From: Thermofilum pendens Hrk 5
GTDB taxonomy: Archaea; Thermoproteota; Thermoprotei; Thermofilales; Thermofilaceae
DNA length: 32,000 nucleotides
Direction: 5' to 3'
Assembly: GCF_000015225.1 (NCBI RefSeq)
Contig: NC_008698.1
Location: 1,050,001 to 1,082,000, forward strand
In this document: one piece after another, positions 16,268-21,880 of the stretch
Layout of the letters: each line of letters starts with the position of its first letter
Numbering within the stretch: the stretch's first letter is position 1
Made by a program: the position numbers and the translations under genes
The notes under the pieces: generated by a model
Told to the model about the DNA's origin: nothing
The model's database searches: none
What the model saw: only the letters and a program-made list of their open reading frames with translations

Positions 16268-17839
16268 TTAGTAGCCGTACGCCCAGGGAACCTCCTTGGC
16301 CCAGCCGAGCGCCCGCTTGACGGCGGCCTTCCAGCCGGCGTAGAGCTGTTCCCTTTTCTCGCGGCTCATCTGGGGCGTAAACCTCTTCTCCTCCCTCCAG
16401 AGCCTCCCCACCTCGTCCAGGCTGCTCCAAACGCCTACAGCTAAACCCGCCAGGTAGGCTGCCCCGAGAGCGGTCGTCTCCCGTACGAGGGGTCTTACAA
16501 CGTCTACTCCCAGAATGTCTGCCTGGAACTGTAGGAGGAAGTCGCTCCTTGCAGCGCCCCCGTCCGCTTTAAGAATCCTCACAGCGTAGCCAGCATCTGC
16601 CTGCATGGCTTCCACAACGTCCCTCGTGAGGTAGGCTATGCTTTCGAGTACTGCCCGCGCTAAATGCTTTCTCGTGGTTCCGCGGGTAATCCCTATGATG
16701 AGCCCCCTCGCGTAGGGATCCCAGTAGGGGGCTCCGAGCCCCGTGAACGCCGGGACGAAGTACAGCCCGCCCGTATCGTCCGCCGACTCCGCGAGGGGGT
16801 CGATCTCCGGGGACACTTCTATCAGTTTCAGCCCGTCTCTTAGCCACTGGATAGCAGCCCCAGTTATGAATATGCTTCCTTCGAGCGCGTAGGTCGCTCT
16901 ACCCTTTGATAGAGAGTAGAACACCGTGGTTAGAAGCCCGCTCCTCGAGTAGCGTATCTCCCCGCCTGTATTCATGAGTATAAAGTTCCCGGTGCCATAC
17001 GTGCATTTAACGTCTCCCGGCGTGAACCCCGCCTGCCCGAATAGCGCTGCCTGCTGGTCTCCAGCGTCCCCGGCGACGGCTATGCTCTTACCGTTGAATA
17101 TACCGTTAAGTTCCGGGCCGGTGTACCCGTATATCTCCGGGTCCGAGGAGGGCCTCGGCGTTGGAAGAGAGTCCTCCGGTATCCCGCCCATAGCCTCCAG
17201 TAGCTCTGGGTCCCACTCAAGCCTCTTTATGTTGAACAACATGGTCCTACTGGCGTTTGAGTAGTCGGTTACATGGGCGCCGCCTTTCTCAGGGGTTAAC
17301 ACCTCCCTGGATCCGCGCGTAAGGTTCCATATGATCCAGGAGTCTATCGTGCCGAAGACAGCCTCCCGCCTAGCTACCTTTTCGCGAAGCCCCTCCACGT
17401 TCTCGAGCAACCACTGTATCTTGCTCCCGGAGAAGTAGGGGTCCGGGATAAGCCCGGTCTTCTCGCGTATCTCCTCCAGCCGCTCCTCCTTCAATTTATC
17501 AGTTATCGGGGCTGTACGCCTATCCTGCCACACTATCGCGTTGTAGAGAGGGTTCCCGGTGCGGACGTCCCAGACGACAACAGTCTCCCTCTGGTTAGTC
17601 ACTCCTATCGCGGCTATCTCGCCCGGGTCCACCTTGGACCTCCTCACGGCGTCCCTTATGCACTCTAGCGTTTTCTCCCAGATCTCTAGGGGGTTGTGCT
17701 CAACCCACCCAGGCCTGGGGTAGATCTGCGTGTGCTCCCTGTAAGACCACCCGCCAGGCACGGGTCTACCTTCCGGGTCGAAAATAGCCGCTCGGGTTCC
17801 AGTAGTACCCTGATCTATTACCAAGACTAGCTTTGACAT
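16268..17839 (-). CDS. glpK: Glycerol kinase
   Basis: 523 aa, colinear with the FGGY-family glycerol kinase pattern: [50 protein letters not shown], and [23 protein letters not shown]-like TTTATATTTTTTA lies on the minus strand at about 17857-17875. Confidence 0.95.
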
Positions 17840-18018
17840 AGCTTAAATGGCTTGAGGATAAAAAATATAAAGATTCCTTTTGAAACAAAGCGTTGGAGTA
17901 GCCTTTCGACTCATTCGTGCGCAGGAAGTATGGGTACATTCACGCTCGGATGGAGGCTTGTAAAAGGAACATACGCGGCAGATGGGCTTGAAACGAGAAC
18001 TCATGTAAACAACACTTG

Positions 18019-18048
18019 GTAGACATGTGCTTCTCTTTTTATGTCTAC
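18019..18048. promoter_or_regulatory. Inverted repeat GTAGACAT-N14-ATGTCTAC just upstream of the trx TATA box
   Basis: 8-bp perfect arms (18019-18026 / 18041-18048) with a T-rich loop, 16 nt upstream of TTTATAG (18064-18070). Confidence 0.45.
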
Positions 18049-18099
18049 TTTCGTAGTGAAACGTTTATAGGTTCTGCTTCTCTAGGCTACTGGTCGCGT

Positions 18100-18513
18100 A
18101 TGGAGGAGGTCGAGCTGATAAAGAGGAGGATGCTGAGAGAGCTGGTCTCTAGGAGGGGCTCCACCGCGGGGAGCGCCCGTTGCCCCTACGAGAGGTGGGC
18201 TAGAGCCCCTACGTTCAACGACGCGCTGTCTAAGTGTAAGGTGGCGCTTGCGGATTTCTGGGCTGAGTGGTGCGGGCCCTGCAGGTTAACGGAGCCTATC
18301 TTCGAGGAGCTCGCCGCCAAGTATGCCGGGAGGGTCGCCTTCCTCAAGGTGAACGTAGACGAGAACCCCGACCTCGCGGTGCAGTACGACGTTATGAGCA
18401 TACCCACGATGATAGTGTTTAAGGGTGGCAAGGAGTTCAAGCGCTTCATAGGGTACTCCCCGCTACTCGCGAGGCAACTCGACCTAACGCTTCAAGGGCT
18501 AATAGCCGGGTAG
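18100..18513 (+). CDS. trxA: Thioredoxin
   Basis: 137 aa from the ATG at 18100, with TATA TTTATAG at 18064-18070 30 nt upstream. Active site WAEWCGPC, and the downstream YDVMSIPTMIVFKGG typical of thioredoxins. The supplied ORF start at 18016 is probably an upstream over-extension. Confidence 0.9.
   Translation: MEEVELIKRRMLRELVSRRGSTAGSARCPYERWARAPTFNDALSKCKVALADFWAEWCGPCRLTEPIFEELAAKYAGRVAFLKVNVDENPDLAVQYDVMSIPTMIVFKGGKEFKRFIGYSPLLARQLDLTLQGLIAG
18238..18297 (+). repeat. Copy 1 of a 60-bp direct repeat (thioredoxin active-site region); copy 2 is at 20163-20222
   Basis: aaggtggcgcttgcggAtttctgggCtgagtggtgcgggccctgcaggttaacggagcct compared with the same string carrying G and T at the two capitalised positions. 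By my hand alignment that is 58 of 60 identical. Confidence 0.85.
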
Positions 18514-18758
18514 CGCGCACTGTAGAGCAAGGGCCGACGAAGCACTTAAGTTCTGCAACGACTCCAAGTGGCACGAGTACCTACGCAGGTTCCCGGACTC
18601 AGCTGTACCACTTGAGTGCATCGAGGCGCTTTGTGAAGCAGTAGAGCGGGGTGTACGCGTAGATCCCTACAAGCTGCTGATTGACTGTGCTAAGCACCCG
18701 GGTACGTGCAAAGCCGATTAGGCCCGTGTTGCTAATTCGTATGGGCACGAAAGGCTGT

Positions 18759-18780
18759 AAGGTGTATCAAAGGTGTATCA
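18759..18780. repeat. Tandem 11-bp repeat AAGGTGTATCA x2, preceded by a degenerate third copy (AAGGCTGTA at 18751-18759)
   Basis: Read directly from aaggctgta aggtgtatca aaggtgtatca. It lies in the non-coding gap between the start-less ORF and the 3' end of the ATPase gene. Confidence 0.7.
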
Positions 18781-18834
18781 CTTATAGAGAAGAGAAGCAA
18801 CTGTGACTTTCTCAAGCAGTCGATGAGCCCAGAA

Positions 18835-20100
18835 CTACAATTGTTGCTGTAGCTTTTTCACACGTGTCCTAGCTAGTTCGAGTAGGTTTTCCGCGCTGAA
18901 TACTTCTATCCCCTTCGGCTCTCTCGGCAGAACGTCCCCTCTTGGAACCACCAAGATCTTCCTGCACTTATACCTCGACAGCCTTTCCTCGATCTTCTCG
19001 ACGTCGCTTGAAGTGAGAGTCTCCCTCCACTTTACCTCCACCGCTGCCTTAAGCGATTTAAAGTCTACAAGAGCCACGTCTACCTCGTGTCCTGGCTCAA
19101 CTATCTTCTCAGCCCAGAGCCCCATCGACTTGGAGAGTAGGTAGGCAACGAACTGTTCAACGTAGAGAGGCATTTTCTCCCTCAGCACTCTCAAGGCTTG
19201 CTCCTCCTCCAATTCCCTCTCGCTTATACCGTACTTTGCGTCCATGTAGAAGAAGAGGTCAACCACGGGGGAAACATGCCTGTACATGTATCTATTCTTC
19301 CCGTAGAACTTCACCTTCTCGAGTATCCCTATCCTCTCCAAGACTCTGAGGTAAGGATGCACTAAGCTTGGATCCTGGGCGGCCATGAGCCTGTTGGAGT
19401 AGAGGTAAGCCGCTATTTCCGACGAGACGCTCTTCCCGCTGGCTACAGCTTTAAGTACTCCCTCATACACTCTTGAAAGAAAGCGCTCCTCCTCCCTGAA
19501 TACCTCGCCTACAAGAGCCGGCACCGTGTACCTCAGGGTCTGCACGACCCCTCTCTCGAAGTTGCTTGCTCTCTCCCACACCGGAGTGAGCCACGGCTCC
19601 CTGAGCAGGACGGATACTTCAACAAGTCTTTTCGGGTCTGAAACATAGCTCGACAAGTTCACCAGTATGTCTGCCTCGTCAACCAGGCCCATCTTGAACT
19701 CTGTCATCATGCCGAGCAATGGGGATCTACCACTGAGAATTTCCCTCGAAAGCCACAGGGTGGAGGAAACAGCGACTAGGCGCCCCCTGGTCCCCAGGCT
19801 ATGCAACATGTCGCTAAACTCGCTGGGCAACCTTTGGAACTCATCGACCACGACAGTCTCATTGTGCTTCAGCTTCTCAGCTAGTTCCCTTCTGAAGGCC
19901 TCGTAGCTTATCCTCTCGGAGTCGACGAAGATTTCCCCCTCCCTGCCGACAAAGTAGTACGAGTCCCACTTAGTGAAATTTCTGATGAAGTAGCTTTTTC
20001 CAACTTTCCTCCTCCCGTAGACGAGAACCCAGGCTCCTGTACTCTTCCACCTGGCCAAATCCGAATGCCTCACTATACTAACCACAGTTAGACTAACCAT
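18835..20100 (-). CDS. Archaeal ATPase family protein (AAA-type P-loop domain plus DUF234-like C-terminal domain)
   Basis: 421 aa. Walker A VYGRRKVGKSYF and Walker B VVVDEFQRL. The C-terminal half has a winged-helix-like segment and a DUF234-like end (VDVALVDF...AVEVKWRE). My hand counts of two 60-nt lines give 28/60 G+C each, against 39/60 for one line in the membrane-protein gene at 21902-22768. Confidence 0.85.
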   Translation of the reverse strand: MVSLTVVSIVRHSDLARWKSTGAWVLVYGRRKVGKSYFIRNFTKWDSYYFVGREGEIFVDSERISYEAFRRELAEKLKHNETVVVDEFQRLPSEFSDMLHSLGTRGRLVAVSSTLWLSREILSGRSPLLGMMTEFKMGLVDEADILVNLSSYVSDPKRLVEVSVLLREPWLTPVWERASNFERGVVQTLRYTVPALVGEVFREEERFLSRVYEGVLKAVASGKSVSSEIAAYLYSNRLMAAQDPSLVHPYLRVLERIGILEKVKFYGKNRYMYRHVSPVVDLFFYMDAKYGISERELEEEQALRVLREKMPLYVEQFVAYLLSKSMGLWAEKIVEPGHEVDVALVDFKSLKAAVEVKWRETLTSSDVEKIEERLSRYKCRKILVVPRGDVLPREPKGIEVFSAENLLELARTRVKKLQQQL

Positions 20101-20162
20101 GATTATACTTTATAACCCTTTCTTTTAAGTTACCGACCGCGTGTGGAGGAGATTGGGCAGGC

Positions 20163-20290
20163 AAGGTGGCGCTTGCGGGTTTCTGGGTTGAGTGGTGCGG
20201 GCCCTGCAGGTTAACGGAGCCTTCAAGCGCACGGATACCCGGGCTCAGCGTGGCGGGAGGGCTCGCGCCTTCCGCTTTCTACCAGGTTTG
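20163..20290 (+). pseudogene. Decayed thioredoxin remnant: 5'-truncated, and frameshifted or diverged after the CGPC region
   Basis: It begins exactly at the 60-bp repeat and encodes ALAGFWVEWCGPCRLTEP. It has no homology to trx upstream of that point. Downstream it stays colinear but decayed: CGGGAGGG and CGCCTTCC blocks occur 31 nt after the repeat, against 29 nt in intact trx. The supplied ORF 20166..20402 is this remnant read through into spacer. Confidence 0.7.
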
Positions 20291-20398
20291 TAAGGTTACA
20301 TGCAGGTTCGTGAAGGTTAAGCACACTGTGGTCTACTTCATGCGCGCGAGCGATAAGCATTTCTGGCGAAGCCGGGTATTCTTACTCGGCAGAGGAGC

Positions 20399-20788
20399 GT
20401 GAGGGAAGAGGCCTCGCTGTGGTTCAGGCAGGCAGAGAGGGACCTCGAAAAGGCGAGGAACGACCTAGTCACACATGACTGGGATTCGGCGGCTTTCTGG
20501 AGCCAGCAAGCAGCTGAGAAGGCCTTGAAAGCCCTCCTTCTAAGCCGGGGGAGGGTCTATAGGGGGCACAGCCTGCTCGCCTTGGCGGAAACCGCTAAGA
20601 GCGAGCTGGGGCTAAGCGTCGACGATATCATCGGGGATTTGAGGGAGCTCACAGTTCACTACACGATTTCGAGGTACCCCAACGCGGCGAACGCTTTTCC
20701 CTACGAGCTCTACGACGAGGCGAAGGCGAGGGAGCTGGTGGAGAGGGCCAGGAGGGTCGTGGAATGGGTAAGGCGCCATCTGCCCTAA
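20399..20788 (+). CDS. HEPN domain protein (putative RNase toxin of a HEPN/MNT module)
   Basis: 129 aa. Typical HEPN helices (AERDLEKARNDL..., FWSQQAAEKALKALLL...GHSLLAL) and an Rx4H motif within RELTVHYTISRYP. GTG start at 20399. Confidence 0.85.
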   Translation: MREEASLWFRQAERDLEKARNDLVTHDWDSAAFWSQQAAEKALKALLLSRGRVYRGHSLLALAETAKSELGLSVDDIIGDLRELTVHYTISRYPNAANAFPYELYDEAKARELVERARRVVEWVRRHLP

Positions 20789-21108
20789 GGTCCCAGGAGA
20801 AGGCCCTGGAGGTTGCGAAGAGGGTTGCCGGGAGGGCTGCCAAGCTCTGCGAGGGCAGGGGGTTCAAGCTCGTGGGTGCCTACCTGGTTGGTAGCAGGGC
20901 ACGGGGAGACTACCTGGAGACTAGCGACGTCGACCTGGTACTCGTGGTCGAAGGCGTGGAGGGGCTAAACGCCCTGCAGAGGCTCGAGCTTTTCAAAGAG
21001 GTCCTGGAGCCGGAAGTCGATCTCCTCGTGCTCTCCCCCGAAGAGTGGCGGGAAGGGCGTAGCGCCTGGGTGGAAACCCTCAAGAAGGAAGCCGTACCCC
21101 TAGTCTAG
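20764..21108 (+). CDS. Minimal nucleotidyltransferase (MNT; pol-beta superfamily), partner of the HEPN protein
   Basis: 114 aa. The GS...DxD signature appears as LVGSRARGDYLETSDVDLVLVV. It overlaps the HEPN gene by 25 nt. Confidence 0.85.
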   Translation: MGKAPSALRSQEKALEVAKRVAGRAAKLCEGRGFKLVGAYLVGSRARGDYLETSDVDLVLVVEGVEGLNALQRLELFKEVLEPEVDLLVLSPEEWREGRSAWVETLKKEAVPLV

Positions 21109-21166
21109 AGTCTCGCGCGCTAATAGAAAACTTTATCTTCTTACCTGGCTCCTAGCCCTGATTCGA

Positions 21167-21880
21167 ATGAGCGGCTTGGAGAAGGTTTTGGCGGAAGTGA
21201 AGGTGTTTTCCTTCGATGTCGACGGGACGTTGCTGGACAGCTACACGTACATGAGGGACGTGCTCCAGATACTCCTGCTCTACATAGGCGTGCCTGCAGG
21301 CATGCTGGAGATGGTGACGGACGATGTGTACAGGTCTTGGTACGATCTCGAGAAGAGGGGCGTGTTCGACTACGGCAAGATGCACCTTTTCCTAGAGGAG
21401 TTCGCGAGGAAGTACGCGGTCCCGGTGAGGTACGACGTCAAGGAGTTCCAGGACCTACTCCTGGAGGCGAGAGTTAAGGGCTCGGAGCCCTACAGGTGCG
21501 CCGTGAAGCTACTATCGGAGCTGAAGAAGAGGGGGAAGATCGTTGTAAGCGTGTCGGGAGGCGACGGTGTCCCCGGCATGAAGAGGAGGCGCATAGAGGA
21601 GGGCGTACCCGTGAAGCTCTTCGACAAGATACTCGTAGTCCCCGAGGACGCTCCGTCGAGGGTGGAGGCCCTCAACGCCGTGAGGGAGGAGTTCGGGGTG
21701 TCAAACGAGGAGGTGCTACACGTAGACGACAGGCCTCAGCACGCGGCCGAGGCGTACAGCGCGGGCTTCAAAGCCATGGTCGTGAAGACGGGCTTCTACG
21801 ACCCGTACTTCCGGTTGCCGGACGGCGTCCTGGTAGTCGACGACCTCTGCGCGGTGCTGGACGCCCTGTCGAAGCTCTAG
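21167..21880 (+). CDS. HAD-superfamily hydrolase (phosphatase-like)
   Basis: 237 aa. Motif I FSFDVDGTLLDS (DxDGT). Motif II-like VSVSGG. Late motif HVDDRPQH..A (the DD of motif IV). Confidence 0.8.
   Translation: MSGLEKVLAEVKVFSFDVDGTLLDSYTYMRDVLQILLLYIGVPAGMLEMVTDDVYRSWYDLEKRGVFDYGKMHLFLEEFARKYAVPVRYDVKEFQDLLLEARVKGSEPYRCAVKLLSELKKRGKIVVSVSGGDGVPGMKRRRIEEGVPVKLFDKILVVPEDAPSRVEALNAVREEFGVSNEEVLHVDDRPQHAAEAYSAGFKAMVVKTGFYDPYFRLPDGVLVVDDLCAVLDALSKL

Follow-up and report, generated by a model that had tools for sequence, protein, structure and literature searches.

A 20-codon copy of the thioredoxin active-site region in an acquired block of Thermofilum pendens Hrk 5: a probable rearrangement scar rather than an attachment site

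We analysed a 32,000-nt stretch of the genome of Thermofilum pendens Hrk 5 (hereafter the window; counts of repeat copies given below hold within these 32 kb), in which 60 nt of a thioredoxin gene (trx) recur as a second copy (copy 2) on the far side of an AT-richer segment. An initial annotation of this DNA had read the arrangement as the remnant of an integrated element that had targeted trx, with the 60-mer as its attachment (att) core. One part of that proposal stands, in that the DNA following trx appears to have been acquired; the 60-mer as att core, trx as target and a trx 3' end borne by the element do not. We propose, with a probability of roughly 60%, that copy 2 is a recent, non-functional ectopic copy of 20 trx codons, a scar within a 2.65-kb acquired block that occupies the short spacer between trx and the gene for a HAD-family hydrolase (HAD). 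The att reading is not supported and, judged from the comparisons set out below, is already largely refuted.

The repeat is as initially described. Positions 18238-18297 (copy 1) and 20163-20222 (copy 2) form a direct repeat in which 58 of 60 bases are identical, and self-comparison, which the initial annotation had proposed as a way of finding further copies, returned these two only; no other repeat of similar quality is present across the 32-kb window. A 32-mer of the repeat occurs twice in the window, both occurrences being the repeat copies, where none is expected (100 shuffles). Copy 1 is in codon phase with trx, its first base lying 138 nt from that of the gene (18238 against 18100). Copy 2 departs from it by two transitions, both non-synonymous (D52G and A55V); D52 is nearly invariant among trx orthologues, and alignment position 55 is mostly Ala. 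Over the 60-mer, copy 2 matches the trx of T. pendens at 58/60 positions and its orthologues at 40-44/60. A second T. pendens assembly is 100% identical over 21 kb, the repeat included, and two independent read-set assemblies continue from copy 2 into the downstream HEPN gene, so the repeat is not an assembly artefact. The latter two are Logan contigs (L092, SRR9438660; L093, SRR9438659) that are 100% identical to the window and start or stop at 20193, inside the exact stretch common to both copies; at this locus, k-mer assemblies of short reads from this strain are fragmented by the repeat.

Some minor features of the 60-mer were also noted. Within its core (18274-18291 and 20199-20216), three overlapping palindromes, GGGCCC, CCTGCAGG and GTTAAC, follow one another in the CGPCRLT codons. 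The 9-mer TGTAAGGTG is common to the left edge of copy 1 and to an 11-bp tandem repeat, AAGGTGTATCA, further downstream; this match is probably due to chance, since by our own estimate, made without a tool, about 0.6 such matches are expected. The resemblance to a template and variable repeat pair of a diversity-generating retroelement was dropped, as the copies differ at just two positions, of which one is an A, and a reverse transcriptase is lacking.

The limits of the insertion were set by comparison with relatives, namely the metagenomic Thermofilum-like contigs L082-L085 and Infirmifilum lucidum (L086; CP062310). In all of these the order is glpK(-), trx(+), HAD(+), LysO, MFS, with trx directly before HAD and a gap between the two of 121 nt in L082 and 63 nt in L086. 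The metagenomic contigs are 80-85% identical to T. pendens in glpK, 63% in trx and 62-78% in HAD; with I. lucidum included, the ranges are 79-85% for glpK and 57-78% for HAD. In the window the order is glpK(-), trx(+), a start-less open reading frame (ORF), an AAA ATPase gene (-), copy 2, a 176-nt stretch, HEPN(+), MNT(+), the HAD hydrolase gene, LysO, MFS and ABC transporter genes (Table 1). Because the relatives have HAD right after trx, positions 18514-21166 are specific to the T. pendens lineage, and the conserved synteny shows glpK, trx, HAD to be the ancestral order. Selection pins the insertion to the trx stop on one side and to the HAD promoter on the other. Its absence from the relatives, together with the foreign composition of the ATPase gene described below, supports the view that the insertion is horizontally acquired DNA placed after trx. 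Copy 1 is in native DNA, 216 nt short of the insertion, and copy 2 is in mid-insertion, not at its edge. The empty site that the initial annotation had anticipated, with trx directly followed by HEPN-MNT, was not seen: the ATPase gene and HEPN-MNT are both missing from the relatives. The arrangement that it had named as contrary evidence, tandem full-length trx paralogues, was not seen either, the relatives carrying a single trx. An 8-mer, GCTAATAG, present at 18498-18505 (the end of trx) and at 21119-21126 (just past the MNT stop), brackets nearly the whole 2.65-kb insertion. As a bracketing microhomology it was judged a probable chance match, as it would imply an ancestral trx C-terminal extension longer than that of any orthologue.

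The gene that supplied the 60-mer is an intact thioredoxin gene. Its product scores 106.5 bits against TIGR01068, above the curated cutoff of 96.8, matches Pfam Thioredoxin at E=3e-25 and has WCGPC in its translation. For its C-terminal part the nearest sequences are those of the same syntenic relatives (68-76% identity), the IFE signature directly after the core is common to T. pendens trx and to P0126 and P0134 only, and the 3' end has a native-like G+C content at third codon positions (GC3) of 0.79. By these comparisons, trx is native over its whole length, with a vertically inherited 3' end. As the left edge of the insertion is at its stop codon, trx was not the integration target. Thioredoxins of the Thermofilaceae type have an N-terminal extension of about 45 residues, with a nearly invariant Cys28 and Cys46 beside CGPC (alignment; positions 18100-18237 of the window).

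The left junction of the insertion is itself informative. The trx stop codon occupies 18511-18513, and from about 18515, a few bases away, the start-less Cys-rich ORF at 18506-18718, which has no in-frame start codon, shows homology to another protein family. It matches P0246 (E=1.4e-16) and P0247 (E=2.9e-13) in a phmmer search of 1.84e9 representatives, and it aligns to residues 87-147 of the 159-residue P0247 with a Smith-Waterman score of 176, against 26±4.6 for shuffled sequences. The family is very rare, with 4 matches at E<=1e-3 among the 1.84 billion representatives, and has no Pfam or PHROG match. Since the homology of this truncated gene begins right after the trx stop, the left junction is an illegitimate join at the end of trx. 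Full-length P0247 has a HELKE motif, and on a low-GC contig (L143) the P0247-family gene is itself split into two ORFs. The sequence following copy 2 was considered as the lost N-terminal half of this pseudogene, as in a circularly permuted element, and rejected (Smith-Waterman score of 25 against 21±3.9 for shuffled sequences).

Composition divides the insertion further. The initial annotation had described the contents of the bracketed segment correctly (the trx 3' end, the start-less Cys-rich ORF, AAGGTGTATCA twice in tandem and the ATPase gene on the minus strand), and had taken the whole as AT-richer. The difference survives statistics for the ATPase gene, whose G+C content (GC) of 0.521 and GC3 of 0.666 are the lowest among 29 genes, the others having a GC3 of 0.780±0.046; it does not extend to the trx 3' end, HEPN and MNT, which are native-like (GC3 0.77-0.79). 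The 1865-bp bracketed segment ranks fourth lowest in GC among 603 windows, the spacer at 18719-18834 has a GC of 0.457, and GC3 is 0.61 in the pseudogene and 0.67 in the ATPase gene, against 0.77 in both HEPN and MNT. Given the truncated gene abutting the trx stop and two units that differ in composition, the joining seems to have been illegitimate and probably took place more than once.

We then considered the sequence on either side of copy 2. Upstream, alignment to trx scores 9, against 8.3±1.3 in shuffles, in agreement with the earlier statement that no trx homology precedes this copy. Downstream, a decayed but colinear trx 3' part had been claimed on the strength of the CGGGAGGG and CGCCTTCC blocks. 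These blocks do exist, at +27 and +29 nt, but the rest of the claim did not hold. The core is 3% diverged and the next 28 nt are unrelated to trx; an unrestricted local alignment of the 176-nt tail to the trx 3' part is not significant. A banded colinear alignment beats dinucleotide shuffles (0-3 of 400 reach its score), yet the same score is reached by 25 of 1698 real 176-nt segments of the window (p ~0.015), and the words in the banded block recur elsewhere in the window and are common in this genome. A trx hidden Markov model (HMM) built from 13 sequences (T. pendens trx and 12 orthologues), run with all filters off in three frames, found profile positions 47-67 only in the copy 2 region, whatever the frame. 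The tail was therefore rejected as a decayed copy of the trx 3' end, and likewise as one of 18470-18834, local alignments being not significant; it has no homologue, and neither the trx 3' end, the pseudogene nor any other sequence resembles it reliably.

These data bear directly on the att reading, according to which a small integrase-less element (18298-20162) would have entered trx site-specifically at a 60-bp att core, bringing a replacement trx 3' end and displacing the native one beyond copy 2. For this to hold, the element must have brought the trx 3' end that follows copy 1, and the sequence beyond copy 2 must be the original 3' end, pushed out of place. Direct repeats of 60 bp fall inside the 29-69 bp reported for crenarchaeal att sites, and 3'-distal integration into protein genes is known in Thaumarchaeota (PMC6563490), so that a protein-gene target would not be unprecedented in Archaea; a compositionally foreign ATPase gene lies between the repeats, and a weak colinear trx-like block follows copy 2. 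However, the repeats are not where the relatives place the ends of the insertion, nearest relatives and GC3 alike mark the trx 3' end as native, and the element would have to include the illegitimate join between the trx stop and the truncated gene. Past copy 2 there is no trx C-terminal homology, and a displaced functional 3' end of the same age as a 3%-diverged core could not be unrecognisable. Another, independent insertion would have to be assumed for HEPN-MNT, at precisely the place expected of the displaced end. In addition, there is no integrase among the larger ORFs of the window, no viral or plasmid relative was found, and homologues of the ATPase elsewhere lack bracketing repeats. 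Taken together, we regard site-specific integration at the 60-mer as highly improbable.

Copy 2 lies between two units, the ATPase part and the HEPN-MNT cassette. As to the exact mechanism, we infer the following. Foreign DNA would have been joined into the trx-HAD spacer by illegitimate recombination or break repair. From their composition, the ATPase and pseudogene part and the HEPN-MNT part, which flank the 60-mer, may represent two units or have arrived in two events. The 60-mer may have been laid down at a breakpoint as templated filler, during break repair or a replication template switch, with trx as the template, some 220-280 nt from the break before insertion. Copy 2 would afterwards have drifted by two transitions, each destroying a conserved residue. 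No model other than a recent copy of exactly 60 nt accounts for sharp edges at 97% identity unless more is assumed, and we therefore favour templated filler; as a specific mechanism it is put forward tentatively, and at lower confidence than the scar itself. Copy 2 probably has no effects other than breaking short-read assemblies and providing a substrate for a deletion of 1925 bp, by which trx would be destroyed.

Several observations weigh against interpreting copy 2 in this way. Microhomology of more than 1 nt is not visible at either of its edges, and there is no direct signature of templated synthesis. The colinear trx-like block (p ~0.015) gives a weak indication that copy 2 may originally have extended a little further. 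Copy 2 begins and ends at codon boundaries, in a frame that stays open for 78 codons up to a GTGA overlap with HEPN, which hints at a possible coding constraint. Finally, no close relative of T. pendens was found, hence no intermediate state was seen: a degenerate core pattern had 0 matches in metagenomes, a genome scan with glpK gave at best 71% identity, and exact-protein look-ups returned the same strain only, the trx, ATPase and HEPN proteins matching T. pendens Hrk 5 ABL78527, ABL78528 and ABL78529, respectively.

The possible trx-like block invites the idea that copy 2 is the last remnant of a larger trx duplicate, whether tandem, segmental or left by Campbell-type integration of circular DNA carrying a trx fragment, the rest having been lost to the ATPase and HEPN-MNT insertions and to deletions. 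The copy does derive from T. pendens' own trx (58/60, against 40-44/60 for orthologues), the block 27-29 nt downstream would be colinear, and the locus clearly underwent several rearrangements. On the other hand, this history needs at least two more deletions or insertions bracketing a clean, in-phase 60-nt piece, the relatives have a single trx, and no other trx remnant is detectable on either side of copy 2. We consider it unlikely. Identity falls abruptly from 97% in the core to unrelated sequence, after which a weak block follows; this could also be produced if a short tract of gene conversion from the functional trx had recently restored the core of an old, decayed trx paralogue fragment. 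Gene conversion, however, needs flanking homology, of which none is detectable to the left and none for 28 nt to the right; the relatives are without a second trx at this position, and no trx-like peptide occurs outside the core. This explanation seems to us extremely unlikely.

The possibility that copy 2 is functional calls for a closer look at the open frame that it begins. This frame starts with the GTG at 20166, inside copy 2, and its TGA overlaps the GTG start of HEPN as GTGA. The frame is preceded by GGAGGAG at a distance of 13 nt and by TATA-like motifs at about 40 nt; TTTATAA and TTTTAAG are found in the spacer at 20101-20162, which is probably a divergent promoter region. The tail has a GC of 0.576 and, in the frame of the core, a GC3 above GC1 and GC2 (G+C at first and second codon positions), and a gene caller predicted the 78-codon ORF on Logan contigs L092 and L093. 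Together with the edges on codon boundaries, these features would suit a 78-residue chimeric CxxC micro-protein, translationally coupled to HEPN-MNT and with copy 2 as its N-terminus, or a leader or cis element of that operon. Against such a role, database searches with the ORF returned only itself, and related HEPN-MNT cassettes have no such upstream ORF. Both substitutions fall at conserved trx residues, one of them a near-invariant Asp, and the frame has a coding score close to zero, where real genes reach 0.33-0.45. The fragment comes without the remainder of the thioredoxin fold: the Pfam Thioredoxin match of the ORF is confined to residues 3-21 and, at 18.6 bits, does not reach the cutoff of 23.5, so that neither copy 2 nor the ORF holds a complete thioredoxin domain, and the conserved Asp is a Gly. 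The frame is probably not a gene, and a function for copy 2 is very unlikely. We likewise give very little credence to a 60-mer that is still at work, either as the recombination core of a minimal integrase-less PDC-S01 cassette moved in trans, or as a trx fragment exapted as the start of a CxxC micro-protein co-expressed with HEPN-MNT.

Read as a rearrangement scar, the feature would be a fresh instance of an already known kind of genome rearrangement. As in archaeal att sites (those of SSV-type and pNOB8-type tyrosine integrases, and of thaumarchaeal integrated mobile genetic elements), a host-gene segment is directly repeated with foreign DNA in between. Unlike in those systems, the repeats are not at the ends of the insertion, the 3' end of the supposed target is native, and there is no integrase, whole or split, no displaced 3' fragment and no episomal or viral relative here. 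A long, near-perfect repeat of a gene segment around AT-richer DNA can thus mimic an att footprint; the relatives show that in this case it does not mark where the insertion ends, and the result serves chiefly as a caution.

Templated filler insertions at breakpoints arise by microhomology-mediated or alternative end joining or by replication template switching. Copy 2 resembles them in being a short, sharp-edged direct copy of nearby sequence, placed between unrelated DNAs at an illegitimate join, with its template within a few hundred bases; it differs in that the priming microhomology is not visible. To our knowledge, templated filler events are undocumented in Thermofilum. The locus also recalls the relics that flank acquired DNA: one junction carries a truncated foreign gene (18515-18718), and the block contains a host-gene fragment, copy 2. 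This fragment, however, is unusually clean, with precisely 20 codons, in phase and 97% identical. Like defence islands, the inserted block holds a PDC-S01-like gene and a HEPN-MNT (type VII) pair; unlike them, it is just 2.65 kb long and wedged between two housekeeping genes, and PDC-S01 is a candidate defence family only. The locus therefore documents a small defence-type block wedged between housekeeping genes in a hyperthermophilic archaeon, with a truncated foreign gene and a 20-codon fragment as its scars. If intermediates were found in related strains, it could reveal illegitimate recombination and break repair in Thermoproteota, where these processes are poorly known.

Table 1. Positions of the thioredoxin repeat, the insertion that contains its second copy and the surrounding genes in the window
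Feature	Coordinates	Strand	Remarks
Glycerol kinase gene glpK	16268..17839	-	Native left neighbour, divergent from trx; synteny anchor; Pfam FGGY_N/FGGY_C
Thioredoxin gene trx	18100..18513	+	Intact, 137 aa, CGPC active site
Repeat copy 1	18238..18297	+	Exactly trx codons K47-P66 (KVALADFWAEWCGPCRLTEP); source copy
5'-truncated pseudogene (start-less Cys-rich ORF)	18506..18718	+	Homology from ~18515; left junction of insertion
Lineage-specific insertion	18514..21166	.	2653 bp, trx stop to HAD start
Tandem 11-bp repeat, AAGGTGTATCA x2	18759..18780	.	Within AT-richer spacer 18719-18834
AAA+ ATPase gene, C-terminal PD-(D/E)XK-like motif	18835..20100	-	Intact; PDC-S01-type candidate defence gene
AT-rich 62-nt spacer 5' of ATPase gene	20101..20162	.	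GC 0.45
Repeat copy 2	20163..20222	+	Ectopic trx fragment, sharp edges
78-codon chimeric open frame	20166..20402	+	trx core and orphan tail; unannotated in GenBank
Orphan 176-nt tail	20223..20398	+	Separates copy 2 from HEPN
HEPN toxin gene (predicted)	20399..20788	+	Pfam HEPN E=5e-32; R-x4-H motif RVYRGH
MNT antitoxin gene (predicted)	20764..21108	+	Overlaps HEPN; Pfam NTP_transf_2 E=2e-11
HAD-family hydrolase gene	21167..21880	+	Pfam Hydrolase/HAD_2; native right neighbour of trx in relatives

The ATPase gene had been described as DUF234-type, a label that the searches did not bear out: Pfam gives weak AAA_14/AAA_22 matches, and PADLOC assigns it to PDC-S01 (PDLC04790, E=4.9e-10, with three further PDC-S01 models at E<=4e-4). 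PDC-S01 is an ATPase fused to a PD-(D/E)XK domain, abundant in Archaea, and is a candidate defence family not yet validated (PMC12988326). Walker A (G29-K35), Walker B (D86-E87) and D341...E355-V-K357 are invariant or near-invariant in 11 homologues. With its PADLOC match, both Walker motifs and a C-terminal nuclease-like motif, the gene qualifies as a putative PDC-S01 candidate defence gene. Its closest homologues are just 50-64% identical and are spread across Korarchaeota, Methanomethylicia and other lineages, in variable contexts that adjoin other ATPase, HEPN, PIN or restriction-modification genes; at five other loci, no repeats bracketing the homologue were found. On two contigs (L090 1048-3152 and L091 407-2260) an ATPase homologue (59%) is followed on the same strand by a HEPN gene or a HEPN-MNT pair, so that this neighbourhood recurs elsewhere, in another orientation.

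We also searched the locus for mobility functions. Domain scans of 21 larger ORFs, together with precomputed Pfam annotation of an overlapping 21-kb locus, revealed no integrase, recombinase or transposase domain among the larger ORFs of the window, as the initial annotation had reported for integrases. The search that it had suggested for viral and plasmid relatives of the segment gave no supporting match: for the segment, the 60-mer and the ATPase, no viral, phage or plasmid relatives were found beyond generic trx matches and haloarchaeal megaplasmid ATPases of 25-27% identity. An Rfam search of 17700-21300 returned no match.

The HEPN and MNT genes overlap by 25 nt, with HEPN first, and are predicted to encode a type VII-like toxin-antitoxin pair; the MNT protein has a weak NCBIfam MntA match, below cutoff. 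Relatives of the HEPN protein, 60-79% identical, were found at 17 metagenome loci in unrelated contexts, none with trx, the ATPase gene or a conserved leader nearby, and no conserved leader or upstream ORF is present in 16 related HEPN-MNT loci. From its distribution, HEPN-MNT is a self-contained cassette. A different HEPN-MNT pair is present in I. lucidum (L086 5566-6280), between glpA and glpK and about 2 kb from trx. A tblastn search at E<=1e-3 did not match it to the T. pendens pair, so this neighbourhood has been struck independently by toxin-antitoxin cassettes.

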